Of a stretch of 62,046 nucleotides of DNA, positions 2,742-37,741 are shown in pieces. Under the pieces are notes generated by a model. That model was not told the DNA's origin. It saw only the letters and a list, made by a program, of their open reading frames with translations, and searched no databases. The position numbers and the translations under genes are program-made. The stretch is from a virus. Lineage: Duplodnaviria > Caudoviricetes. The stretch's first letter is position 1, and each line of letters opens with the position of its first letter. The DNA lies in IMG/VR virus record IMGVR_UViG_3300009181_000079, positions 1-62,046 of that record; one strand, 5' to 3'.

Positions 2742-2957
2742 ATGAACCAAACCAAATACAAGATCACCATCGAAAAAATCGAGGAAGTCACCAAGGTCGT
2801 CCGGGGAGAATGGACGAGGGTAAGCGATACCGGACCGAACCCATTCGGCTACACACCAGACCGAGAGGCGGAGGTCAAGGTGGAGACCACGATTCTGGAA
2901 CAAACTGTCGAAAAACTCGACCTTAAGGCTGTTCTCAAAGCCATCAACGGACTATGA
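2742..2957 (+). CDS. hypothetical protein
   Basis: ORF with A/C-rich leader, coupled to the next gene. Confidence 0.7.
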   Translation: MNQTKYKITIEKIEEVTKVVRGEWTRVSDTGPNPFGYTPDREAEVKVETTILEQTVEKLDLKAVLKAINGL

Positions 2958-3754
2958 ACCAACTCATCATCGCACCTCCAATCGGCGAAACCCCATCCAT
3001 CCACATCACGGAGGAGGGACAGAAAATCAAATCCACGCTGATTCACGCGGCCATTGAGGTCGCGCAGATAGTCACCGCCGAACAGCGAGACAATGCCCTC
3101 GTCGCCGCCGGAAACATCAAGGCCCATATTTCCGCCGTCGAAAAGACCCGCAAGGAAATCAAGGAGCCATTTCTTCAAATGGGCCGCGCAATCGACGCCG
3201 CAGCCAAGGAGCACTCAGAGGATCTTGAGTCATATCTGAAACGCCTCAACAACCTCATCGGCTCATTCGAGGATGCGCGCCGCCGCGAGCAGGAAGCCCA
3301 GGAGCGCGCCCGCCGCGCCGAGGAGGCCCGACTTGCCGAGGAGCAACGAAAAGCCCAGCAGGAGGCCGACAGGCTCGCGGAAGAGGCACGCAAGAAAGCG
3401 GAGGCCGCAGCAGCCAAGGGCAAGGAACTGACCCCAGCCCAGAAAGTCAAAGCGCTGGAGGAGCAACTCCAGGCAGAGGAAGAGCAGGAGGCCCGCGAGC
3501 GTGAACTGCGCCGACTCGAAGAAGAGCGCATGACCGCACGCCAGAAAGCCGAAGAAGCGAAGCCCACAGGAGGAGCGCTCAGGGAGGAGATTGATGTGGA
3601 GGTGACAGACATCCATGCTCTCTACAAGCACATGCCAGTCTGCGTGAAACTCACCCCCGACCTCGCCATGATCAAAGCCATGATCAAATCAGGACAGACT
3701 CTCCCAGGAGTCAGCGCCACGAAGCGCCATGTGTTCGCAACCAGGAGCCGATAA
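2954..3754 (+). CDS. coiled-coil phage protein (Gam/Gp157-like recombination-cluster protein)
   Basis: VEKTRKEIKEPFL...IDAAAK pattern, long E/R/A coiled coil, C-terminal LPGV; sits next to the SSB and annealing genes. Confidence 0.5.
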   Translation: MNQLIIAPPIGETPSIHITEEGQKIKSTLIHAAIEVAQIVTAEQRDNALVAAGNIKAHISAVEKTRKEIKEPFLQMGRAIDAAAKEHSEDLESYLKRLNNLIGSFEDARRREQEAQERARRAEEARLAEEQRKAQQEADRLAEEARKKAEAAAAKGKELTPAQKVKALEEQLQAEEEQEARERELRRLEEERMTARQKAEEAKPTGGALREEIDVEVTDIHALYKHMPVCVKLTPDLAMIKAMIKSGQTLPGVSATKRHVFATRSR

Positions 3755-7386: not shown

Positions 7387-7935
7387 ATGAAATCCAAACC
7401 AACCAAATCCAAACTCACCATACCCGACCTGCTTACGGAGATCGTCCGTTCAATCACCAAGGGATCTGAGACACCGTTCGTGGAATACGACGAGGAGCAG
7501 CGAATCATCAGCTTCCGGGTCTCACCGCAGGACCACGGGCGATGTGTAGGAAAGCAAGGCAACGTCATCGCCAGCATCTCTCGCATCATCTGGCTCGCCA
7601 GCGTCATTCAGGAGCTCAGCCCGGTCGCAGTGAAGCTACTTGAGCCTGATGGCCCACGTAAGATGAACGCCAGCCTACCTGTCCTGTTCGATCCGAAGTG
7701 GAACCGGAAGGCAATCGGAAAGCTGGTTGAGGACATCATCGAATCCATCGTCCCGACCTCCGCATGGATCATCGAGGAGAAGTCCGAGACCACAGCCACC
7801 GTCACCATCCGCATCGAGGAATATCTCCAGCGTGCGCTGATGGATCCTCCATTCGAGCTGTCCCTTTCCAACGTCCTCCGCGCTGCCGGCATGGCTCAGG
7901 GTGTGAACCTCAACCTAAAACTGGAATGGGTGTAG
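7387..7935 (+). CDS. KH-domain RNA-binding protein, KhpA-like, with C-terminal extension
   Basis: RVSPQDHGRCVGKQGNVIASI matches the KhpA pattern V..D.G.VIGK.G..I.AI, including the GxxG loop. Confidence 0.75.
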   Translation: MKSKPTKSKLTIPDLLTEIVRSITKGSETPFVEYDEEQRIISFRVSPQDHGRCVGKQGNVIASISRIIWLASVIQELSPVAVKLLEPDGPRKMNASLPVLFDPKWNRKAIGKLVEDIIESIVPTSAWIIEEKSETTATVTIRIEEYLQRALMDPPFELSLSNVLRAAGMAQGVNLNLKLEWV

Positions 7936-26174: not shown

Positions 26175-26556
26175 TTCCCCTCCTTCTTCATCTTCTCAGC
26201 CAGTCGCTCCACCTCTTGCGGTAGAGCCTTCAGCATCGCCGCGATCTTCGGGCGATACTTCTCCTTGCCTGGCTTCACATCCAGCAGGCGAGGGATTCTC
26301 GCCAACTGATCCCGGCTCACTGGAGCTTCCTCCAGAGCCACGCACAGATCCCACCCATCACCATCCCAAACAGCGTGAAGGCCACGCCGCCCAGGATGAG
26401 GGTGTTTTGATTCACTGTAATTGTCTCAATCATTTCTATTCTCCTTTTCTTGTTTCTAACTCTGCGGACTTAAACCGCACACCATCATCCGGCATTCGCC
26501 GGGACGGTGGCACCAGCCTAGGGGATCGGGCCCTAGGCTGGTATCTCGCACTCGAA

Positions 26557-27906
26557 CTACTTCAGGCGGCGGGGCTGCGCCACACACACCTCCAGCAGGT
26601 TCAGCGCGCCTTTCGGCTTCGCTGGCGCTGCGGCCATCTTGACCGCATGGGTCTTCGGCTCATCAGCTATCGCTCCGGCTTCCACGAGGCGCTGGGCAAG
26701 ATACTCTTGCTTGCGGCCGCGGCTGCCGTCCAACCTCGGGGATGCCTGCACCTTACGGTAGGCATCCTGCACCACTTCTGCCCTGGTCTTCTTGATGCGC
26801 TCGAACAGGACTGGCTCCTTGCGCTCAGGCATCACGAACGCCCTTCCAGGGTTGGTGATTGCGAGGAACTGAGTCTGGGCGTATGCCCGGAACTCTGCCA
26901 ACACCCTATCCTCGGTTGCGGGCTGAGCACCCTCAGCGCGGTAGTATTCACAGAGGACTTCCTCTGCCTTGCCGCAACTCATCAGGTGCTTGGGCTGCTT
27001 GCCCAGGTCCTCGATGACGCCGCGCAGCAACTCCGCTGCGGCCGTGGCCTTGAACCGGCGAACCAACTCTGCGTGTTGGCGCTCCTGCTGGAGCTTCACG
27101 CGATTTGCATTCTCCTTGGCCCAGTAGGAGTCTGCCGTTCCGGCCTGCATGGATAGGGCGTATGCCCGATCCTTGTTGCGGATGGCGGTTTCGATCCAGA
27201 ACGGAGCGAGCTCCGGGATTCCAGCGGCGCTCAGCATCCACTGATCGCCGTTGACCTCAGCGTTGAGCCGGATGATGTCAGCCAGCCCTGCGGCCCGAGC
27301 CCGAGCCCGGAGGCTCTTGAGCTTCGAGTCAGCACGCTTGCGGTTCCTCGCCATCCATCCTTGACTGGACTGGAGGTGGACATGCCTTTCGGCGCGCTCC
27401 TTGGCGTCATCCGCCACGAGCACTCGAACGAGGTCTGCCTTGCCGGCATTCCTGCCGTTGATGGTGAGCGGGACGCACAGGCCACGCTCGATGCAGATTC
27501 GCTCCAGGGTCGCTGGAGATTTCTTCACGTATTGGATCCTGGACGGATCCTCTGCGCGAATGAACTTGCTGGACGGAGCCTCCTGCCAGAGGCAGTTGCT
27601 CATCTTGACCTCAGCGAGCGCCGACTTCGGAGTTGGCTCCCACTGCTGGGACTCAGGGTGAAACACCAGCGTTTCTGTGGCTGGGGCTTTGATCCACTGC
27701 GCCTCCCAGTCCGTCATGCGGATGTTGTAGAGCGCCTCCCCGAGGGAGAGCCGCTGTGGGCGCTGCTGGTGCTGCATGGGCCGTTGAGCCTGCTGAGGCT
27801 TGCGGGACTCATGGCGGGGCTCCTGGCGCTGCGCCGGGGCCTTGGCTGAGTTGGTGTTGATGTTGAGCTGTCCGAGTTGGGACAGGCTGTTGAGTTGTTG
27901 TTTCAT
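26557..27906 (-). CDS. hypothetical protein, Q-rich N-terminus, basic and helical
   Basis: 449 aa ORF with AAAACAAACCAA leader. Confidence 0.75.
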   Translation of the reverse strand: MKQQLNSLSQLGQLNINTNSAKAPAQRQEPRHESRKPQQAQRPMQHQQRPQRLSLGEALYNIRMTDWEAQWIKAPATETLVFHPESQQWEPTPKSALAEVKMSNCLWQEAPSSKFIRAEDPSRIQYVKKSPATLERICIERGLCVPLTINGRNAGKADLVRVLVADDAKERAERHVHLQSSQGWMARNRKRADSKLKSLRARARAAGLADIIRLNAEVNGDQWMLSAAGIPELAPFWIETAIRNKDRAYALSMQAGTADSYWAKENANRVKLQQERQHAELVRRFKATAAAELLRGVIEDLGKQPKHLMSCGKAEEVLCEYYRAEGAQPATEDRVLAEFRAYAQTQFLAITNPGRAFVMPERKEPVLFERIKKTRAEVVQDAYRKVQASPRLDGSRGRKQEYLAQRLVEAGAIADEPKTHAVKMAAAPAKPKGALNLLEVCVAQPRRLK

Positions 27907-28105
27907 TTGGTTTGTTTTACTGATGCCAGCTTGTTGAAGAGATCACACACCACTGGTCCGAGTGTGTGAAATAACCAATCTTCACTCGAAGATCGGTCGG
28001 GCATGGAGACCCGTGCCTAGTTGTAGGCTCGGATTGTTTTCTCCATTGGAGTTACCTCCCTGCAACCGCCAGGTCCAATGACCCATACCTGGCGGCTGAC
28101 AGGAG

Positions 28106-28723
28106 CTAACTTCCTGCGGCCTGTTTGGCTGCCTCTTCGAGCGCTTTGAGTTCGCGCTCGTCATTCTCATCGGAGCAGCCCCAGCAGACGTGCATGTTGA
28201 TGGCACGCTGGTTGGTCTTGCACTGAGGGCACAGGTGCTTGATGCGATCCGCCTCTACGGTGGCACGCACTCCGTCCCAGTGTGTCTGCCATTCATCCTT
28301 GCACGAAGGGCAGTATTTTCCGGGGCGACCATCCACCACCGATGATCCGATGTCGCCGCAGTAGTCGCACACGCAATAGCGAGGCAGGCGCGTGTTTTTA
28401 GTGAGCTGCCAATAGACTTCTCTGATGAGGTCCGGCCTGTCTCCGAACTGTCCTTTTTCAGACAGCCCGAATCCCATCTCATCGACCAGTAGCTCGACGA
28501 TCAGCGCGGCGACCGCTTCCGTTGAAGTGCCGCCGTCGATGAAGACGTAGGCCCGACGAACCGGATTACAGGTAAATCCGGACCTCCCGGATTTCAGCGG
28601 ACTGACGAACCTGTATCGCAGCAGGGTCGTGATTTTGAACCGATCGCCATTCTCATCCGAGAACGGCTTGATGAAGACCATGACTTTTGAGCCACAGAGG
28701 TTGAACTTGATGTGTGTTTTCAT
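28106..28723 (-). CDS. hypothetical protein with multiple CxxC pairs
   Basis: CDYC, CPSC, CPQC, CWGC; A/C-rich leader. Confidence 0.65.
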   Translation of the reverse strand: MKTHIKFNLCGSKVMVFIKPFSDENGDRFKITTLLRYRFVSPLKSGRSGFTCNPVRRAYVFIDGGTSTEAVAALIVELLVDEMGFGLSEKGQFGDRPDLIREVYWQLTKNTRLPRYCVCDYCGDIGSSVVDGRPGKYCPSCKDEWQTHWDGVRATVEADRIKHLCPQCKTNQRAINMHVCWGCSDENDERELKALEEAAKQAAGS

Positions 28724-28851
28724 GTTGTGTTGTTTTTCTTTGGCAGGGGAGCGATTCTCCTGCCGGGTTTGTTGTGTTGCGCTCCATCCTGCCTTCGCAG
28801 GGGATCAGTATGCGTGTGCATAAAGACCCCCTGCGGGCAGACTGGAACTAA

Positions 28852-29527: not shown

Positions 29528-29676
29528 GGTTTCTTCTTTGCCCGCTTTGATCGGTTGAGCATCCGGTTTGTTTTGGCACAGGGGTCGTGCCGTTTTGTTG
29601 CCCCTCACTTGGTTAATTCCAAGCAGACCAGCGGGACAGACAGGGATTGGACCTGCTGCCCGCGGCGTCTGCGCGG

Positions 29677-30411
29677 TTAGGCTATGACCATCTCGCTTCC
29701 AGGCGGCAATCCGCCGGCCGCTTTGAACGTATCCAGAAGGCGGCGAAGATCCGCCGCGTTCGTCTCATTCGCAGCCATCACCAGCATGTGTTGCCCTTTG
29801 TCGTCGAGGGTCCCCTTCTCAGCTCCGGAGGCCCTTTTACTCGCGTCAATGAACCTGTTCGCGTAGAACAGGTCTTGCAGGATCATCGCGACTGTCCTGG
29901 CGTCTTGTTCGCTGATTTGCACGGCCGCCGCCTGCGCTTTGTGTTTCCATTTTACGGCCCCGACGAGCAGCAGGATACTGCACGCTCTCTGATAGACCTC
30001 GCTTCCGCGGGACCGACGCAGGAAATCCGCAACACTCCCCGGCGAGATGTATTCGTAGCCTTCATTGCCGTATCTCATGCACACCGACTGACCGGAGCGC
30101 GGCTGATCGAACACGTAGAGGTCGAACTTCTCCATTGTTCCCTCATTGGTCGGATGCTCGAATGAGCACACGTATTCCTGCGGATCATGCTGGCATCCAT
30201 CGTGCCAAAATGGGCCGTCACATATCCCGTGCTCAAGCCCGTATTCATCCTCGTATTCCGGGATGTGGACGAAGACGTTGCCGCCCTCGTCTGTCTTCTG
30301 CGCCGCGTCTGCCGCCGCCTGCGCCTCCGCAGGGGTGGCGTATTCTCCATACACCACCCATCCTGGGGTGCGTATGACTTGGTAGTTGGTTTGGTTTGTG
30401 GCGTTAGCCAT
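29677..30411 (-). CDS. hypothetical protein (first gene of the early block)
   Basis: 244 aa ORF; DLYVF...RYGNEGYEYIS. Confidence 0.7.
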   Translation of the reverse strand: MANATNQTNYQVIRTPGWVVYGEYATPAEAQAAADAAQKTDEGGNVFVHIPEYEDEYGLEHGICDGPFWHDGCQHDPQEYVCSFEHPTNEGTMEKFDLYVFDQPRSGQSVCMRYGNEGYEYISPGSVADFLRRSRGSEVYQRACSILLLVGAVKWKHKAQAAAVQISEQDARTVAMILQDLFYANRFIDASKRASGAEKGTLDDKGQHMLVMAANETNAADLRRLLDTFKAAGGLPPGSEMVIA

Positions 30412-30497
30412 TTTGTGTTGCTCCGTTATCGGGAGACTTATGTTTGCCAGCGCAGCTTGCTGGCGGTTTGTGTTTTGCTGCCATTCTTCGTATGAAG

Positions 30498-30544
30498 AAC
30501 GACTTGAGCCCGGAAGGATTGCTCCCTCCGGGCTCGGTGTCGTT
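30498..30544 (-). terminator. strong hairpin closing the putative ncRNA (terminator or processing stem)
   Basis: minus strand AACGAC-AC-C-GAGCCCGGAGGGA-GCAA-TCCTTCCGGGCTC-AA-GTCGTT. Confidence 0.55.
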
Positions 30545-31200
30545 TCTCAGTAGATTACTACTTGAGGCCACCCTTGCGTAATGGCCGACCCACCGGACAG
30601 CGGGATAGTGGCTGGATGATGCAGAGTCTCTACATCCCCGATGACGAGCCCCAAGCCCGTCATCTCCGGATTACTGGTGGTTCGCAGTCCGCCCATCGCT
30701 GGCGCGGTCCCTGCGCGATCTGCCGCTGGACGAACCAGGACGCAGTGAGCCACCTTTTTGAGGTGCGCTCGCGAGAATACAATACTCCCGCCGCTTCGAT
30801 CTCATCACCGCCGGGCTAATCTTCCATGTCGCTACCTTTGGCATATCAAGGCAACAGTTCGGGTTTCGCCATCCATGCAAGCATGGACCACCTTCCCCAG
30901 CCGAAGCTGAAGTGGTGCCGGTCGGATACTCGTGCGCCATGTTTCCATAGCACTTACAGGCCGCGATTCGAGACAAGGGATTATACTCCCTGTTCGGCCT
31001 TTAGAATTTCAATGAACAATGCTTGCCCGACGACTATCCGCGTCGGAAGAGGTCATCCCGTGAGGTTTGATTGCTCGCAAGCAGTAGGCAGCCCGGTTGT
31101 GGTTCCGGGCATTGCCAGTCCGCCAACATTTCTGTTGAGCGGGCAGGATCCGTTAAGAACACGCCTACACCCTGTTCTCGTGCCCGCTACCCATGTAACG
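30498..31200 (-). ncRNA. putative large structured non-coding RNA (about 700 nt)
   Basis: more than ten hairpins; on the minus strand they carry GAAA, GCAA, cUUCGg and gCUUGc tetraloops and G-U wobbles; no credible ORF; AT-rich promoter-like stretch upstream. Confidence 0.65.
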
Positions 31201-31266
31201 TAAATATGTATAAATATAAATTTTTGGAGGAAAAATTTCGGGAACATTGACACCCCGACCTCTGGC
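31201..31266. promoter_or_regulatory. divergent early/late control region
   Basis: very AT-rich tract (TAAATATGTATAAATATAAATTTTT) between divergent blocks; TTGACA at 31247. Confidence 0.55.
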
Positions 31267-31527
31267 ATGGCCTACGCCGACCATCTCCTATCCTACCGAT
31301 CCGAATCATCTGAAGACCTCATAGCAGAGAAGGCCGCACTCAAGGCACAGCGCACGATCTACTCAGCACAGGGGATGGGCACAAAATCCATGCAACGGGA
31401 TCTGCGTCTTCTGGAGGAGAGGTTGCAGGCTATCAACTTTGTCTTGAGGGAGAGAAACCCTCCTGTCATCGTGCCGCCTGTGACTAACTTTGGCGTAGGA
31501 ATCTCTGACTTCAGCACCGTCCGATGA
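31267..31527 (+). CDS. head-to-tail joining protein (gpW-like position)
   Basis: small helical/beta-hairpin protein immediately before a lambda-family portal. Confidence 0.55.
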   Translation: MAYADHLLSYRSESSEDLIAEKAALKAQRTIYSAQGMGTKSMQRDLRLLEERLQAINFVLRERNPPVIVPPVTNFGVGISDFSTVR

Positions 31528-33362
31528 GCGACAATTTGATCAAGCTCTATGATGGTCGGGGGAATGTCGTCACTGAATTTCACCCCAAGTTCAACGATGT
31601 CCGCAGGGAGATCCAATTCGGCGCGCAGTATAACCCCGCCCCTGAGAGAAGGGGCTCAAGTGGCGGAATCTATGGCAACGCGGCTCCCGAGACATGGGCT
31701 CGCAATCGGGATAGGCTTCAGTCCATGTGGGACGCGAGAGATCAATGTCAATTTAGTTGGGTTGGCGGTATGCTCGGTCGCGTCTGCCGCTACGTGGTAG
31801 GCAGGCTTCACTGCAAGTCTGAGACTCAAGACCCGCAAATTGACGCAGCCTACGACGACTACTTCCACTCCTGGTGTGGAGACGAACGGAACGAGGACGG
31901 CACAACCAACTGCGACATCACGGGCAGGGCAAGGTTCCTCAAGATGGTTCAACAGGCTTTCCTTGCTCACCTTATTGACGGCGACCATGGCTTTATCGAG
32001 GTAGCTCCAGAGTTCTCACCAACCGGAAGATACTGCCTTCAAGCAATCGAGGCGGACTGCATCGGATCCCCGAATGAACAGACTACTTTTGAGGACTATA
32101 TCGGAGGCGTGAAGATTGATGTCAATACGGGCCGGGTTCTCTACTATCGAATCTTCAAGCGCACACGCACACAGCAATATGTGAAGCTCGCAGAGGTGGA
32201 GCCAGCGAACTTCATTCATCTCAATGACTTTGACCGCTCGGGGGAATACCGGGGCCGCACCAAGCTCCTGCGCGCCCTGAACGATCTCCGAGACATCCGT
32301 GAAGCACTCACAGCCGAGATGGTCAGCGCCAAGACTCAGGCCCAGTGGTCAGCACTCATCGGAGTCAAGGACCCGTTCTCCAACCAAGGCCCGGCGGCCT
32401 GGTCGGGAAAGACCGCAGACGGCACCCCAACTCAAGACGCACAGTGGGGCAAGATTCTAAAGATGGCAGAGGGCGAGCAGTTCCAGATGCTCACCCCTTC
32501 CGCCCGTCCTTCAGGTGCTTTCATGAACCTGATTGACACCCTGATTCGCAAGCTGGCCATCAGCCTGGAACTCAGCTACGGTATGGTGTGGAACCTCGCC
32601 ACCCTCGGCGGAGCCAGCCAGCGCATCGAGACAGAAGCCGACAATCTCAAGATTCAGACCTGGCAGGATCTCCTGAAGGACTACATCCTCACACGGGTCC
32701 GGAACAAAGTCATCGCGGAAGGCATCGCCACTCAGATGCTACCACCTCATCCAGCATGGAAGAGGCACTCTTGGAGATTTGGTAAGCAGATCACCGCAGA
32801 CTTGGGCTACGAGATGGAAAGCGACCTGAAGGCCGTAGGCGCCGGCATTGCCGAGATCGAGCATGTGGTGGCCAAGCACACCGGAAAGAGCTTCAGCGAG
32901 GTCTGTGCGAGCAACACGGCGGCAGCCAATACAGCTATCAACAACGCATCGCAGGCCGGCATCCCCGTCGAAGTCACAGCCCGCGGAATGTTCCCGGACA
33001 TCACAGCCCAGCGCGCGAACTTCCTGCAAAGCCAGGCGCCACCTCCACCACCCGCAAGCCCCGTCAGCATCGGCGTCCTCGGGGACAAGGGCATCAAGCC
33101 TCTCATCGACATCATGGAGAAAGTCGGAGACGGAACGATCGACAGGGAATCCGCCATCAACGCCATCATCGAAATCTACAGCCAGCCAGGCAACGAGCTC
33201 TCCCGCCAGGACGCGGAGAAGCTCATACCAGAGGAGCCGGAAGAGGAAGACCTCAATCGGTCGGCGGGGCTCACACCTGAAGGCAAGCACGCGCCAGTGG
33301 TCGCAGGTCCGAAGCCCAGCAGCAACGGCAGTAAGCCCAAGACGAACGGAGCACGCAAATGA
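31524..33362 (+). CDS. portal protein, lambda family
   Basis: CDITGR..F, IDGDHG, LQAIEADCI, GGVKID..GR...Y.I, IHL.DFDR.GEYRG. Confidence 0.9.
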   Translation: MSDNLIKLYDGRGNVVTEFHPKFNDVRREIQFGAQYNPAPERRGSSGGIYGNAAPETWARNRDRLQSMWDARDQCQFSWVGGMLGRVCRYVVGRLHCKSETQDPQIDAAYDDYFHSWCGDERNEDGTTNCDITGRARFLKMVQQAFLAHLIDGDHGFIEVAPEFSPTGRYCLQAIEADCIGSPNEQTTFEDYIGGVKIDVNTGRVLYYRIFKRTRTQQYVKLAEVEPANFIHLNDFDRSGEYRGRTKLLRALNDLRDIREALTAEMVSAKTQAQWSALIGVKDPFSNQGPAAWSGKTADGTPTQDAQWGKILKMAEGEQFQMLTPSARPSGAFMNLIDTLIRKLAISLELSYGMVWNLATLGGASQRIETEADNLKIQTWQDLLKDYILTRVRNKVIAEGIATQMLPPHPAWKRHSWRFGKQITADLGYEMESDLKAVGAGIAEIEHVVAKHTGKSFSEVCASNTAAANTAINNASQAGIPVEVTARGMFPDITAQRANFLQSQAPPPPPASPVSIGVLGDKGIKPLIDIMEKVGDGTIDRESAINAIIEIYSQPGNELSRQDAEKLIPEEPEEEDLNRSAGLTPEGKHAPVVAGPKPSSNGSKPKTNGARK

Positions 33363-36300
33363 AGAACCCGCTTTTCAAGTCAGGCATCAAATCCGGAACC
33401 CACCACCTCGGAGGAGTGGGTGAGATAAAGCGCATCCGCCTGCGCGACATCCACAGCCCACAGCAAACCGTGGACGAGAAGAAGGTGAGGAAGCTTGCCC
33501 GCTTCACGAAGAACATGCCAGGCACGCCCACGGTGAGCCACGCAGGCCGCGGGAAGTATGTCCTCAAGGACGGCAACCACCGGGTCAACGCAGCGCTCAG
33601 GCAGGGCAAGCGGGTGATCGATGTCCGGGTTCAGAAGTTCTCCTCCCGCTCTCCTCTCATCCAGTTCATGCACTGCACAGCCGAAGCCGTCCCACGAGCT
33701 GACATCCCGCGCAAGATTGTGAAAAGAAAGATCACCAAAAAGCCAATCCAGTTCGCTGCATTTGATATGTATAGAACCTGGATGGACCCGATCGACAAGA
33801 GTAGCCCGGGCCGAAAGAACCGCAGGGCGCTTCAGGATGCCGCCGGCAGGTCCGTTGATCTACCGGCCAGCAAGCCGCCCCGAGTTTCATCCGGAGGGAT
33901 TGGGCGTTCACTGTCCCAGGAGCGCATCGAACAAAAGATACAACAACGCGCGGCTAGAGAAGTCGCGGACCAGATGGAAGGCATTCGCGATCACCCGGGC
34001 GTCGGGGCGCCCTCTACTGAGGGCGAGCTTGCTCGGCACAAGAAGGCCATGCAGGGTCCGGAGCTTTATCATCCTGAGAACGAGGCGAAGGGCTCAGTGA
34101 TCCACACGCGGAATAAGCCAGCTCCAGTGGACGCATGGAAGCACCGAGACCCGAAGGCGTGGTTGGTGGCTAACAAGGCTCAAGGGAGACACGCCGATCT
34201 CGATCCGGAGAACATGACCGCCATGCAGAAGGCGTCCATGAGAAAGGAGGCACAAGCCTTCCGCGATACTGAAGCGAAGACGCTCCGATCTCTCCGTGGT
34301 CGGATACAGGAGATGCGCAAGGCCGTAAGCCCTGGATTCAAGCCATCAGAAAATTTCAAGCCGAGCTCTGGGTCTAACAATATCGTCGGCGGGATGAAGC
34401 CAGAGAAGTGGGAGCCAAAAGGAACACTGAGGATCGGCCCTGGACTCAGCACTCCTGAGATGGTCCATGGCGCGATCTCTCATGTGGATCAAAAAGCAGG
34501 AGAACGCATATCCACGGTGAAGAGCAGACTCGCCCGCATGGTCGGAACCTTAAGGAACAGGGTGTCTGAGACAACCGGTATTCCGGAAGGACCGGCACGC
34601 CATGCTCAGGTGAAGGGATACCTCGAAGGAATGATTCCATCGGAAGGCCCTACAGCAATGGACCTCACGAAGAAGATTGATCCAACTCGATCCGAGCGAA
34701 TCCAGAAAGCGATGAATTGGAAACCGGAGCGGGTCGAGAAGTCACGCCGCGCAATCGCGAAGCTGGAGCACCAGGCAAACAGCGCTGAATATCTCTCACA
34801 GGTCCGGCAGGGCGTCGTAAAGAAAATGGTAGCCGCCCCAAGAGTATCAACCCTTCCTGACGGTTACGTTCCAGGCGCCGCCCTCAAGAAGCTCGGGCGC
34901 ATCGCTGGCGCAACCGCCCTGGTCGGCGCAGGAGCCTACGGCATCCGGAAATATCTGAACCGCAATAAGGAGGAGCCAAAGCAGTTGAAGATGTCAGCGC
35001 GCGGACGGATCATTCAGTTCGTGGTCCCTCGTCAGGTTAAGCAAATAAGGAAGGCGATCCTGACCGCGCGCGAGCCAGCAAAGCGATGGAGGGCTTCTTC
35101 CTTTGCTGATCATGTGATGTCCGAATCTGAGAAAAGAGGAGGAACCGCACAGCGATTCTTCCCGAATCTTTACTCGAACATGCCACCCAAGACCTACAAT
35201 CTGCACGGGCGACCAGTGGACGCTCAGCGAATGGCCCGAGAGCAGAGCAGGGCCGGCCACGAGGAGAAGCTCGTCCAGCGACTTGTTGAGCAAGGGAAGA
35301 TCGTCCGCACTGACAAGCCGATTCCGAAAGAAGCATTCACCAACTACCCAGTCAATGCCATCGGAAAGCTGCCATCCGTGGAAGAGGTGATGTCCCAGGA
35401 TATTGTCGGCGATGTATCAAGCCGGGTTTCCAATCAATTCGCAAAGCACGCAGGGACCGCTCGTGCCGTAGTCTCAGAGGAGAGACGGATGCCGCTCGCA
35501 ATCATCCAGCACACTCCATCTCCATTGGCTGATAAGATCGCCGCAACTGAGCGGCGCGCAGTCGAAGCAGAGGGTCTCGTAGGCGGGCTCAGGGCGTCAG
35601 TAGCATCCTCAAAGAAAGCAGCGTCGGAGTCCGCCTCGCGCCACGCTGAGGAGATGAAGCGCCAGATCTTTCGCGGCGACCGCAACCTTTTGATCGGAGC
35701 CGGGGCCGCCGGGGCCGCCGGGATTGGCGGGGGATACCTACTTGGCCGCAAGAAGAAGGAAGTGCAGTTCAGCGAGAAGAAGCGCGAACTTACACCATGG
35801 CAGAAGGTCGGCATCTCGGCCGCAGCCAGCGGGGCGGTCCTCGGGGCTATTCCAGCATTCAGACATGGATCGACTTTCGGGGGAGTCGCCAGGTCCATCG
35901 CGACCGGGGCTGGTATTGGGTCTGTCGTCGGAGGCGGCGGGACATACATTGGCACTAAAATTCTAGGCGAACCGAGAAAGGACGATCCGATCGGCACAAC
36001 TAAGCGGGCCGCTGTAGGCGGGGCTATCGCCGGCCTTGGTCTCGGTGCCGCAGGGGCCATCGCTCTCCGTAGGGGGCATTTCAAGGGCGCTATGAATGAC
36101 TGGAGGCCCGTCACATTTATCAGGCGCACCGCAGCGCCAGTGGCCATTGCCACAGGAGCCGGAGCCGGAGCCCTTATTGCGGGTAGCCACGCAGCAGACG
36201 AGGGGCAGCAGGTTGATACGATGCGCAATCTCAAGAAGTCCATCCGCATGTCGTCCAAGCTCAAGCCAATCAGGTTCGCCATCGAAGCCCCGCTCTCGGG

Positions 36301-37741
36301 TAAGCTGGCCGCAGATCGTTATCGCAAGAAAATCGCCGATGATGATTTCGATCGCCGTGATGCAAATGTGCTTCGCTCCTCCGGGGCGGGGGCAGTCCTT
36401 GGCGGAATGTTGGGAGGCAGGCGCGGGGCTCTTGCCGGCGCCGGGCTTGGGGCAGCAAGCGTTCTTGGAATACGTCAGGCCACTAATAGCGGCAAGGATA
36501 TGTATGGCGAGCGTTCGCGCGGAGCCAAGCAAGCTGAGAGCCTTCCATGGAAGATTGCCGCCATCGGAGCGGCGGGACTTAGTGGGCGCAGTATTTACAA
36601 TAAGCTGAAATCACTTCGCGGCACCACCCTGAGCCGCAAGGGAGGGCTGATCGAATTTCGCGATTGGTCTGACAAGTGGGTTGGCGACAATGTGAACTAC
36701 ACGGCCCGAGGCGAAGACGTATCCCGATGGGGCGGAAGGGGCGGAAGGCTCGTCCGCGACATCGGGCGCAAGGCTCGCGGTGAGGAGCACAAGGATTCCC
36801 GCGGCAGGGTCCAGACCCCTGAGTGGCAAAAGCCATGGGCTAAGAAGGCCATGCTCATTGGCGGTGTCGGACTGGCGCTCGGAGCGGGCGTCCTTACACG
36901 CGGAAAGCTCAAGGGGCTCGCCCAGGAAGCCAAGGCATCGTATGGGGTCAATCAGGTCCCAAGGCCCGCTGCAAGATTTGCGCACAACGTCATGGAGGGC
37001 AACGTGTCTCATTCGATCAAGAACCGCATCGGGGCCTTTGTTCCAGGACCAGTGAAGCGCGGCTATCAAAAGGTGAAGGGATTCTTCGGCAACGTCGCTC
37101 GCGATGTAGAGCACAAGGCCGCCAGCAAGCTGGACAAGATCAACGAAGCCGTGGAGAACGAAAGCAATATGGTCGTCACCGCGAAGGGTAAAATCCACAA
37201 CGCGCGCAAGGTGAATGCAGCAGTTGCAGAGCAACAAGATGCTGTCGATAAAGCCAATGCCATAGCAAAGAGAGGGCAGGCCAATATCCAAGTGATGCGC
37301 TCCCCAGAGGAGCAGGCAGCAGAGGAAATTCTCAATACTATCCATGGGAAGCCACGCACATTTCTTTCTTCCAATGAAAAGCCGATCCGATTCGACGCTT
37401 GGGACATCAAGGAGAGGAGCCGCAATACCGCTATTGTCCGCACCCCGGACTACGACGAGACCCGCAAGAAACGCGAACACAAAAGGATGTCGAAATCCAC
37501 CGGATACCTTCTGCGTGATCTCGGCATTGCAGCGGCGGGCGGGATTGGATTATGGGCGGGGCACAGGCGCGGATTTGCGAAAGCCGCCAGCACCCGTCCT
37601 TTGATTTCTCCGACCGCTCGCGCCATCGAGGAGGCCCCTCCTCAGATGTGGATCCCGCAATCTGTCCAGCCAATCCGGTCCTATCAATCCATGGACCAAA
37701 TCATCCATCTCAATAACCAACTAGACAACCTGTTGACATAA
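33359..37741 (+). CDS. modular head-associated polyprotein 1 (ParB/Srx-like first module, Gly-zipper modules)
   Basis: KDGNHRV module; repeated S[AS]R/K...I[QER]F linkers; several Gly/Ala-rich hydrophobic segments flanked by K/R. Confidence 0.7.
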   Translation: MKNPLFKSGIKSGTHHLGGVGEIKRIRLRDIHSPQQTVDEKKVRKLARFTKNMPGTPTVSHAGRGKYVLKDGNHRVNAALRQGKRVIDVRVQKFSSRSPLIQFMHCTAEAVPRADIPRKIVKRKITKKPIQFAAFDMYRTWMDPIDKSSPGRKNRRALQDAAGRSVDLPASKPPRVSSGGIGRSLSQERIEQKIQQRAAREVADQMEGIRDHPGVGAPSTEGELARHKKAMQGPELYHPENEAKGSVIHTRNKPAPVDAWKHRDPKAWLVANKAQGRHADLDPENMTAMQKASMRKEAQAFRDTEAKTLRSLRGRIQEMRKAVSPGFKPSENFKPSSGSNNIVGGMKPEKWEPKGTLRIGPGLSTPEMVHGAISHVDQKAGERISTVKSRLARMVGTLRNRVSETTGIPEGPARHAQVKGYLEGMIPSEGPTAMDLTKKIDPTRSERIQKAMNWKPERVEKSRRAIAKLEHQANSAEYLSQVRQGVVKKMVAAPRVSTLPDGYVPGAALKKLGRIAGATALVGAGAYGIRKYLNRNKEEPKQLKMSARGRIIQFVVPRQVKQIRKAILTAREPAKRWRASSFADHVMSESEKRGGTAQRFFPNLYSNMPPKTYNLHGRPVDAQRMAREQSRAGHEEKLVQRLVEQGKIVRTDKPIPKEAFTNYPVNAIGKLPSVEEVMSQDIVGDVSSRVSNQFAKHAGTARAVVSEERRMPLAIIQHTPSPLADKIAATERRAVEAEGLVGGLRASVASSKKAASESASRHAEEMKRQIFRGDRNLLIGAGAAGAAGIGGGYLLGRKKKEVQFSEKKRELTPWQKVGISAAASGAVLGAIPAFRHGSTFGGVARSIATGAGIGSVVGGGGTYIGTKILGEPRKDDPIGTTKRAAVGGAIAGLGLGAAGAIALRRGHFKGAMNDWRPVTFIRRTAAPVAIATGAGAGALIAGSHAADEGQQVDTMRNLKKSIRMSSKLKPIRFAIEAPLSGKLAADRYRKKIADDDFDRRDANVLRSSGAGAVLGGMLGGRRGALAGAGLGAASVLGIRQATNSGKDMYGERSRGAKQAESLPWKIAAIGAAGLSGRSIYNKLKSLRGTTLSRKGGLIEFRDWSDKWVGDNVNYTARGEDVSRWGGRGGRLVRDIGRKARGEEHKDSRGRVQTPEWQKPWAKKAMLIGGVGLALGAGVLTRGKLKGLAQEAKASYGVNQVPRPAARFAHNVMEGNVSHSIKNRIGAFVPGPVKRGYQKVKGFFGNVARDVEHKAASKLDKINEAVENESNMVVTAKGKIHNARKVNAAVAEQQDAVDKANAIAKRGQANIQVMRSPEEQAAEEILNTIHGKPRTFLSSNEKPIRFDAWDIKERSRNTAIVRTPDYDETRKKREHKRMSKSTGYLLRDLGIAAAGGIGLWAGHRRGFAKAASTRPLISPTARAIEEAPPQMWIPQSVQPIRSYQSMDQIIHLNNQLDNLLT

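Follow-up and report, generated by a model that had tools for sequence, protein, structure and literature searches.

What, if anything, is encoded in the one long gap between the genes of the phage genome presented here? The DNA that we analysed, referred to below as the window, is the whole IMG/VR virus record IMGVR_UViG_3300009181_000079, with a length of 62,046 bases. It contains an 855-nucleotide (nt) divergent gap at 30412-31266, between the portal operon on the plus strand and a leftward operon on the minus strand. An earlier note, based on the letters of the DNA and their open reading frames (ORFs), had described this as the only long gap of the genome and had read it as a large non-coding RNA (ncRNA) made from the minus strand. 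The first description is essentially right, since the gap is by far the longest non-coding stretch of the window, and the other true gaps, which are hairpin-rich gene spacers, measure ~130-215 nt. As to the second, we judge the chances to be even that ~31195-30497 on the minus strand, hereafter the element, is an accessory, separately terminated gene for a ~700-nt highly structured ncRNA that belongs to no described family.

Fold of the minus strand

Folding of 30412-31210 gave a minimum free energy (MFE) of -337.6 kcal/mol for the minus strand, with a z-score of -6.67 and 0 of 20 dinucleotide shuffles as good, whereas the plus strand reached -306.6 kcal/mol (z -3.91); this comparison with dinucleotide shuffles was one of the checks proposed in the earlier note. 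As expected of a structured ncRNA, the minus-strand fold is thus more stable than shuffled sequence, strand-specific and, as described below, well defined, with coding controls and a scan of the window as a caveat. Three 799-nt coding controls from the same genome had z-scores of -1.10, -3.50 and -3.64, so the background is already negative. In the scan, which comprised 412 windows of 300 nt on both strands and was scored as residual z, the windows of the element lay at -2.5 to -0.9 and were not the top outlier of the genome, and two shorter hairpin-rich intergenic stretches, 26251-26550 and 27901-28200, reached -3.3. Because of these controls, the raw stability of the element is notable yet not unique.

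Unlike raw stability, the definition of the ensemble, the helix probabilities and the tetraloops single the element out. The centroid structure of the minus strand (-330.1 kcal/mol) retains 98% of the MFE, compared to 62% for the plus strand (-189.4 versus -306.6 kcal/mol) and 81-89% for the coding controls, and the mean pairing probability was at least 0.85 in 27 of the 35 minus-strand helices of at least 4 pairs, long-range helices included. To count tetraloops, we considered simple hairpins with a 4-nt loop and a stem of at least 5 pairs, and took GNRA, UNCG and CUUG as the stable classes. Such loops cap 5 of the 11 hairpins on the minus strand of the element and none of the 9 on its plus strand, whereas elsewhere on the minus strand the proportion is 35 of 582 (6%; Fisher p 3.7e-4 for the minus-strand comparison). 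Since stable tetraloops matter only in RNA, this enrichment is the best single argument for a minus-strand RNA, and it bears out the earlier claim that tetraloops favour this strand.

The predicted architecture of the minus strand is listed below. All individual hairpins in this list are present in the sequence as well as in the MFE fold, and the body is delimited by its fold z-score, helix probabilities and tetraloops, and by the lack of a coding signal and of an Rfam match.

30506..31195, minus strand: body of the proposed structured RNA, ~690 nt, with an inferred 5' end
31087..31189, minus strand: predicted 5' hairpin group, consisting of GAGAACA..UGUUCUU, CCGC-CAACA-GAAA-UGUUG-GCGG, and GGCA-GCCCGG..CCGGGC-UGCC, helix probabilities 0.92-1.00
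30792..31083, minus strand: predicted central multi-branch domain, closing long-range helices with probabilities of 0.92-0.99
30546..30791, minus strand: predicted 3' hairpin series, most helices with probabilities of 0.86-1.00 and four with 0.52-0.78
31137-31124, minus strand: hairpin CAACA-GAAA-UGUUG
30953-30934, minus strand: hairpin GUGCUAUG-GAAA-CAUGGCGC, with two U-G pairs
30912-30895, minus strand: hairpin (CUU)CAGC-UUCG-GCUG(GGG)
30888-30871, minus strand: hairpin (G)UCCAUG-CUUG-CAUGGA(U)
30791-30771, minus strand: hairpin GCGGGAGUA-UUG-UAUUCUCGC
30664-30640, minus strand: hairpin GAUGACGGGCU/GGCUCGUCAUC
30585-30567, minus strand: hairpin GCCAUU/GGUGGC
30535-30506, minus strand: GCAA-capped stem of 13 base pairs (bp)

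The central domain of ~290 nt is closed by long-range helices at 31083-31079/30796-30792, 31060-31057/30815-30812, and 31050-31045/30825-30820, and holds the GAAA (30953-30934), UUCG (30912-30895), and CUUG (30888-30871) hairpins. The members of the 3' series lie at 30791-30771, 30770-30747, 30745-30720, 30715-30683, 30664-30640, 30636-30618, 30585-30567, and 30566-30546. Every hairpin that the earlier note had named was found in the sequence, and nearly all of them recur in the MFE fold. The pairing AGCGGGCA/UGCCCGCU (31188-31138) is possible as an inverted repeat, but is replaced in the MFE fold by UAGCGGG paired with CCCGCUG at 30604-30598 (probability 0.61), and of the stem that had been drawn at 30566-30586, the GCCAUU/GGUGGC pairing holds whereas the longer version contains a mismatch.

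On its minus strand, the element has three copies of the heptamer GGGWGUA (30783-30789, 30984-30990, and 31166-31172), while the whole window has 11 matches when both strands are counted. Two of the three copies lie within a longer repeat, GAACAGGG(A/U)GUA. The heptamer could be a repeated binding or structural module, although its significance is uncertain since the motif was picked after seeing the sequence.

Coding potential and known RNA families

Hidden small protein genes would be another way to account for the gap. ORFs of up to 125 amino acids (aa) are open in it, and the same slot between the two operons holds small ORFs in two related loci (L002 and L049) and probably in two more (L007 and L021). 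We scored the ORFs with a codon model, for which 27 long window genes served as the training set and in which 21 of 23 held-out small genes scored at least 0.13. All 13 gap ORFs of at least 40 aa scored 0.02 or less, and the six frames of the element were all negative (-0.20 to -0.48). The translations of the gap ORFs look like noise and are rich in R, S, P, and C, the longest ORF is located on the plus strand, antisense to the RNA signals, and no ribosome-binding site was seen before those minus-strand ORFs that we inspected. Hidden protein genes are therefore very unlikely.

The earlier note had proposed a search of Rfam for GOLLD, ROOL and introns. With Rfam 15 (4227 models), nothing was found at gathering scores on the whole window, and the region of 1.1 kilobases (kb) at 30300-31400, searched with permissive filters and an expect value (E) of up to 10, gave five meaningless weak matches only. 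The GOLLD, ROOL, group I intron, and group II intron models, the last for domain V/VI as well as D1-D4, matched neither at gathering score nor up to E 10. ARAGORN found 0 transfer RNA (tRNA) or transfer-messenger RNA (tmRNA) genes in the window, and there was no match to tmRNA, RNase P, 6S, signal recognition particle, and other housekeeping RNAs with Rfam and ARAGORN, so the earlier statement that signatures of tRNA, tmRNA, and RNase P are absent was right. A full-text search of the literature found no description of the element.

A very divergent form of a known large RNA or ribozyme, such as an ORF-less group II or group I intron, GOLLD, ROOL, HEARO or a similar guide RNA, would resemble the element in its size of ~700 nt, its many GNRA loops and its phage setting. 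Moreover, the last hairpin of the element starts with GAGCC and has a GNRA loop, like domain V of group II introns, which is a ~34-nt hairpin with a GNRA loop and a 2-nt bulge. However, the hairpin at 30535-30506 is an unbroken stem of 13 pairs (one G-U) without this bulge, and domain V was rejected for it. The element also lies between operons, where it interrupts no gene, no tRNA gene is located nearby, and the 39 window proteins that were scanned against Pfam included no reverse transcriptase and no IscB/TnpB-type or HNH protein. Considering also the Rfam results, we find a divergent known class highly improbable, and by the tests run the element is no member of the GOLLD, ROOL, or intron families.

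Two further candidates were rejected. One was a DNA repeat element, since no iterons, tandem repeats or terminal inverted repeats were found in the element. The other was an RNA antisense to the phage's own transcripts, a role that is unlikely because the longest perfect complement is 13 nt, about chance level (~0.6-2.6 such runs expected by arithmetic). Overall, the observation reported in the earlier note was confirmed as a whole, with the hairpins present, a long non-coding gap, and a minus-strand z of -6.67, and its interpretation as a large ncRNA is partly supported, namely by the lack of coding signal (13 of 13 ORFs at 0.02 or less), the strand-specific, RNA-like fold, and the absence of an Rfam family.

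The element as an exchangeable unit

The portal, which is of the lambda type, served as an anchor for finding related loci. It has 114 relatives in the protein collection, the closest of which (P0002-P0010) are 72-82% identical, and an alignment of 40 was used to fetch 73 portal-anchored loci, 44 from IMG/VR, 1 from a genome (a metagenome-assembled genome (MAG) of Chthoniobacter), and 28 from metagenomes; a single-protein portal scan of IMG/VR gave 0 loci. The closest locus that includes upstream DNA is L050, with a portal that is 98% identical by protein. In L050, 148 unrelated nt replace 30482-31240 of the window, while the DNA is 94.8% identical from 31241 rightwards, and on the other side homology resumes in 97 bases that span the leader and first codons of the next gene (90.7% identical). 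Leftward of this leader, L050 differs by whole cassettes with flanks of 84-95% identity (window 28060-28781 and 29677-30384): the 244-aa gene that follows the element in the window is replaced by two other genes, one of them cysteine-rich, and a 205-aa gene (28106-28723) is absent.

We also compared the window with four of 20 public sequencing runs, X3, X4, X19, and X20, where uncovered parts in X4, X19, and X20 carry no weight. A 3,533-nt contig of X3, a DNA run from another study, matches 29934-30481 with one difference and then the window from 31277 onwards, with 705 other letters between the two parts. Window-type contigs are present in X3 as well, and are identical over the 794 element bases that they cover. 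By these comparisons of sequence, the element is an exchangeable and dispensable unit, has a sharp boundary at 30481/30482, and is not linked to the adjacent 244-aa gene, as the X3 contig retains 29934-30481 with a different upstream sequence and L050 has other genes at this place. Since the element is exchanged as a unit between near-identical phages, it would be dispensable for the basic lytic cycle. This dispensability and exchangeability is a new point that was absent from the earlier note.

Homologue searches and the same slot in related phages

No copy of the element was found by blastn or nhmmer in the 73 portal-anchored loci. The gap matched the flanks in L050, a 27-nt leader motif in L007 and, more weakly, a 28-nt stretch in L021, and the 5' region of the element gave weak matches only, in L021 (E 0.056) and L007 (E 6.5). 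There was no blastn match in 50,697 INPHARED phage records. Three scans of IMG/VR with 17-19-nt motifs of the element returned 1, 2, and 0 matches, all attributable to chance and without extended similarity, and scans with the leader motif or with linker hairpin 2, both described in the next section, returned only the records of L007/L021 and L004. BLAST against the whole records of L004, L005, L007, L015, and the Chthoniobacter MAG gave nothing below E 0.24. Because one portal relative lies in this MAG, 401 Verrucomicrobiota genomes were searched with BLAST as well, and 2 of these had matches of 25-28 nt, which is about chance level.

The slot that the element occupies holds other sequences in the relatives. 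In L004, a complete IMG/VR record of 69.6 kb with terminal repeats, an 861-nt stretch at 2760-3620 on the minus strand is found at the same position and on the same strand, between the portal operon and the leftward genes. Its minus strand folds with a z of -7.03 (plus strand -4.89), it has no coding-like minus-strand ORF and no Rfam match, and it ends with a near-identical linker hairpin 2. The body of this stretch shares 0 10-mers with the element on the same strand and has no other sequence similarity to it. L007 and L021 carry a conserved structured block (3452-3625 on the minus strand in both; slot z -7.38 and -3.97, respectively) with a near-invariant core of 100 nt, a hairpin with an invariant 16-nt loop, and a first hairpin with many two-sided changes between both phages. 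The core contains a sequence that resembles the leader motif, and the block has no Rfam match. A covariance model of this 176-nt block found nothing in 29 sources with default filters and, with filters off, only a 6.5-bit noise alignment on the gap of the window. We dropped L007 and L021 as clean analogues because the block precedes non-homologous small ORFs. Neither L004 (0 of 7 on each strand) nor L005, L007, L015, or L021 showed the tetraloop enrichment. The fold of the slot in further loci was as follows.

L002: z -3.17, small ORFs in the slot
L049: z -1.51, small ORFs in the slot
L015: z -3.08
L005: z -2.89
L012: z -0.47

Among the other relatives, the same slot contains small genes, a tRNA, or almost nothing. 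The tRNA gene (57.5 bits) is found in L038, a more distant relative, at 3565-3635 on the plus strand, just upstream of the portal operon and in the same general slot. The slot is a hot spot at which accessory cargo is found, part of which is apparently RNA.

These findings bear on the possibility that the stretch is non-functional or acts at the level of DNA, as a decayed cassette, recombination debris, a DNA site (origin, packaging, or recombination), or a set of incidental hairpins. This would agree with its absence in L050, its replacement in the X3 contig, its orphan status in every search, a genome whose sequences generally fold well, and a slot that is a mosaic hot spot. However, the tetraloop enrichment is strand-specific and of an RNA type (p 3.7e-4; plus strand 0/9), only one strand has a very well defined centroid fold, and the stretch shows neither iterons or tandem repeats nor a coding signal kept in any frame. 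Moreover, the equivalent slot in the complete, terminally repeated L004 record is far from the genome ends, and the window-type contigs of X3 are identical over all 794 element bases covered. We consider a non-functional or DNA-level feature to be improbable.

Signals at the ends of the element

On both sides, the element is bordered by the following features.

31206..31266, between the strands: A+T-rich divergent control region between the 86-aa gene (plus) and the element (minus), which reads CCUCCAAAAAU..UUUACGUUAC on the minus strand
30494..30548, minus strand: terminator-like unit with a 13-bp G+C-rich GCAA-capped hairpin at 30535-30506, an inverted repeat with a helix probability of 1.00
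30480..30503, minus strand: linker hairpin 2, GUCGUUCUUC-AUAC-GAAGAAUGGC, at the cassette end, containing the 30481/30482 break point relative to L050 and the X3 contig
30412..30481, minus strand: conserved leader of the first protein gene, with hairpin 3 between an A/C-rich run and UCUCCCGAUAACGGAGCA; over 97 nt, the identity to L050 is 90.7%
Punctuation sites of the leftward genes: window 29609-29676, 30412-30505, 27907-28105, and 28724-28851; L049 2247-2309; L050 2845-2990; L007 3040-3130

The control region is the presumed site of the leftward promoter, from which transcription would start. The motif order CCACCAA, A/T run, UACGUU is present at the same place in L007 and L021 by alignment, and by eye also in L004, L005, L015, L049, and L050. 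At the other end, the terminator-like hairpin is flanked by the A-rich GAGAAACGAC on its 5' side and the U-rich GUCGUUCUUC on its 3' side, a layout that looks like a bidirectional intrinsic terminator, and it has a similar counterpart at the same place in L004. We propose that the RNA has its 3' end near 30497. Linker hairpin 2 has nearly the same sequence in L004, the portal of which is 55% identical. Within the conserved leader, hairpin 3 (GCCAGC..GCUGGC) is located at 30464-30446, and UCUCCCGAUAACGGAGCA (30436-30419, minus strand) folds GGAG into a CUCC/GGAG hairpin, 9 nt before the AUG. Copies of UCUCCCGAUAACGGAGCA are found once in the window, at 2850-2867 and 3507-3524 in L050, at 3052-3069 in L007, and at 3074-3091 in L021.

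Two side observations concern this leader. The GGAG in UCUCCCGAUAACGGAGCA is a likely ribosome-binding site, and the hairpin is a possible translational control element for the first leftward genes. On the plus strand, hairpin 3 (30444-30466) is followed by UUUGUGUUUU and was called terminator-like by the scan, and could stop antisense transcription that enters the control region.

The leftward genes share a form of punctuation that consists of a terminator-like hairpin, a linker hairpin (GGUCUGCUUGG.. or GUCGUUCUUC..), an A/C-rich run, a hairpin, an A/C-rich leader, and the AUG. Protein genes in the window (29609-29676), L049, L050, and L007 are followed by a sister unit, made up of a terminator and a GGUCUGCUUGG hairpin. 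The window at 29617-29679 is 100% identical to L049 2247-2309 over 63 nt, compared to an identity of only 69% between the portal genes. Because such units coincide with mosaic break points, they look like recombination linkers or conserved transcription signals. The element sits in the first cassette slot of the leftward operon, with the same 3' punctuation as the protein-gene cassettes of this phage group.

The main rival to a separate RNA gene is a cis-acting structured 5' leader, in which the element forms the first 700 nt of the leftward operon transcript and its folds, together with the 30535-30506 hairpin, control read-through into the 244-aa gene and beyond, or protect the 5' end of the messenger RNA (mRNA). 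The element indeed has the presumed promoter region immediately on one side and the conserved leader of the first gene immediately on the other, and the U run of the terminator-like hairpin is imperfect, because of which the scan missed it. The U-rich run pairs either with the A-rich run before the hairpin (probability 0.83) or forms linker hairpin 2, and such alternatives are typical of attenuators. In L007 and L021, the conserved structured block (~170 nt) occurs at the same place and is followed by small ORFs. On the other hand, L050 drives the same conserved leader with only 148 nt upstream, hence no long leader is needed, and 700 nt with more than 30 helices far exceeds the attenuators or antiterminator RNAs known to us. 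Since the 3' punctuation is that of a complete gene cassette, we prefer a separate RNA gene over a leader, which we regard as possible but rather unlikely.

Expression and weighing of the evidence

Two lake or freshwater metatranscriptomes from different studies contain short contigs that are 100% identical to the element, at 30545-30720 in X19 and at 30936-31095 in X20. These contigs give a weak hint that the element is transcribed.

Aside from the stability of the control sequences, several points speak against a separate RNA gene. The X19 and X20 contigs could be DNA carry-over and show neither strand, ends nor level, and X19 also has a contig at 31472-31687, over the 86-aa and portal genes. 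Both ends of the proposed RNA were inferred. The promoter scan gave 0 sites and no sigma-70 consensus, and the consensus terminator scan did not call the 30535-30506 hairpin on the minus strand. Without efficient termination at this hairpin, the element would be the first 700 nt of the operon mRNA. An element that is absent from a sister phage may also be functionless cargo. Finally, no second, diverged copy was found in any collection searched, and covariation, which is the standard proof for a structured RNA and was one of the checks proposed in the earlier note, needs such copies. With these points taken into account, the element is a credible candidate for an orphan large structured RNA that is optional for the phage.

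Possible function

If the element is a separate RNA gene, its transcription would start in the A+T-rich control region at 31206-31266, which is common to related phages. The RNA would then fold into the 5' hairpin group, the central multi-branch domain, and the 3' hairpin series, with several GNRA, UUCG, and CUUG caps, a fold for which the strand-specific signals have been given above. The 13-bp GCAA-capped hairpin at 30535-30506, which is preceded by the A-rich run and followed by the U-rich run, would mark the end of the RNA. Such a folded RNA would most likely act in trans by virtue of its structure, for example by serving as a scaffold, a decoy, or a binding partner. Possible roles are host takeover, superinfection exclusion, and counter-defence, which are suggested by the alternative alleles in near-identical phages, since loci for immunity or counter-defence have such alleles.

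A more far-reaching reading, which we offer tentatively and hold to be doubtful, is that with the element a new kind of large ornate phage RNA has been seen for the first time, which would occupy the first slot of the leftward operon and be swapped as a cassette between near-identical phages for other RNA alleles or for nothing. These other alleles would perhaps be the 705-letter allele in X3 and the 861-nt stretch in L004. The swapping, if true, would fit an RNA under diversifying selection, for example, a factor for superinfection immunity or counter-defence.

Genes around the element

The operons on both sides begin with the following genes.

31267..33362, plus strand: start of the rightward operon, an 86-aa gene followed by the portal gene (31524-33362; PF05136, E 8.4e-31)
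29677..30411, minus strand: first protein gene of the leftward operon, 244 aa, no family, with a coding score within that of the training set

From 31267 onwards, the plus strand carries the 86-aa gene, the portal gene, and long unannotated genes, and the 1460-aa protein encoded directly after the portal gene (33359-37741, plus strand) matches nothing in Pfam or PHROG. Among the products of the plus-strand genes between 104 and ~12,800 are a gpA-type large terminase, a RecT-like protein, and a DnaB-type helicase. Leftward from 30411 to ~12,900, the minus strand contains many small genes without a family, plus an AAA ATPase. Judged by this content of small genes without a family, the leftward block may be early. 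The product of the 244-aa gene has no Pfam or PHROG match. A 182-aa protein encoded at 7387-7935 on the plus strand has a KH-type RNA-binding domain (PF13083) that, at 30.0 bits, falls slightly short of the Pfam cut-off of 32.1. The protein could conceivably be an RNA partner, but nothing links it to the element.

Comparison with known RNAs and significance

GOLLD and ROOL are large ornate RNAs that are often carried by phages or prophages, and GOLLD came from freshwater metagenomes and frequently has tRNA genes as neighbours in phages or prophages. Like these, the element belongs to the ~600-800 nt class, is densely branched with many stable tetraloops, is a phage-borne, dispensable, gene-like unit, and is of freshwater metagenome origin, as is GOLLD. 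Unlike GOLLD and ROOL, it has no Rfam match up to E 10, no tRNA genes nearby, and no known diverged family. According to a cryo-electron microscopy report, GOLLD and ROOL form RNA-only multimers (Nature 2025, PMC12286853). The RNA proposed here is a ready candidate for probing and for the same type of microscopy.

The pRNA of phi29 is an essential RNA of ~170 nt from the start of the leftward early region, which has a fast-diverging sequence and has kept its position. The element is likewise a phage-encoded structured RNA candidate at the start of a leftward region and next to the portal operon, but it differs in length (~700 nt versus ~170 nt) and is dispensable, as L050 lacks it, whereas the pRNA is essential. 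Moreover, the phage has a large terminase of the lambda gpA type, and packaging of this type does not use a pRNA. The CI RNA of P4, the c4 RNA of P1 and P7, and the put RNA of HK022 are leader-encoded regulatory RNAs that are ~70-80 nt long and target short, defined complementary sites or RNA polymerase, and immunity or antitermination regions of this kind undergo exchange between phages that are otherwise nearly identical. The element resembles these in that it would come from the first part of an early operon and lies in a region that is exchanged between near-identical phages. It differs from these RNAs in its length of ~700 nt, in a complementarity to own transcripts of at most 13 nt, and in that the 39 window proteins scanned included neither an integrase nor a repressor.

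If the element is a leader or debris instead of an RNA gene, the finding would be of local interest only. New in our analysis are the element as a replaceable cassette, the 705-letter alternative, and the shared 3' punctuation consisting of a terminator and a linker hairpin. To our knowledge, the large (>500 nt) structured RNAs known from bacteria or phages amount to no more than a handful, and we know of no phage-associated large RNA with an established function, so a further, unrelated example would widen the set of large structured RNAs. The value of the element lies in its clear gene-like boundaries, in the presence, absence, and replacement alleles in near-identical phages, and in its recurrence in freshwater metagenomes. 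The contrast between alleles, i.e., the same phage with and without the RNA, could make its function testable once the host is known.

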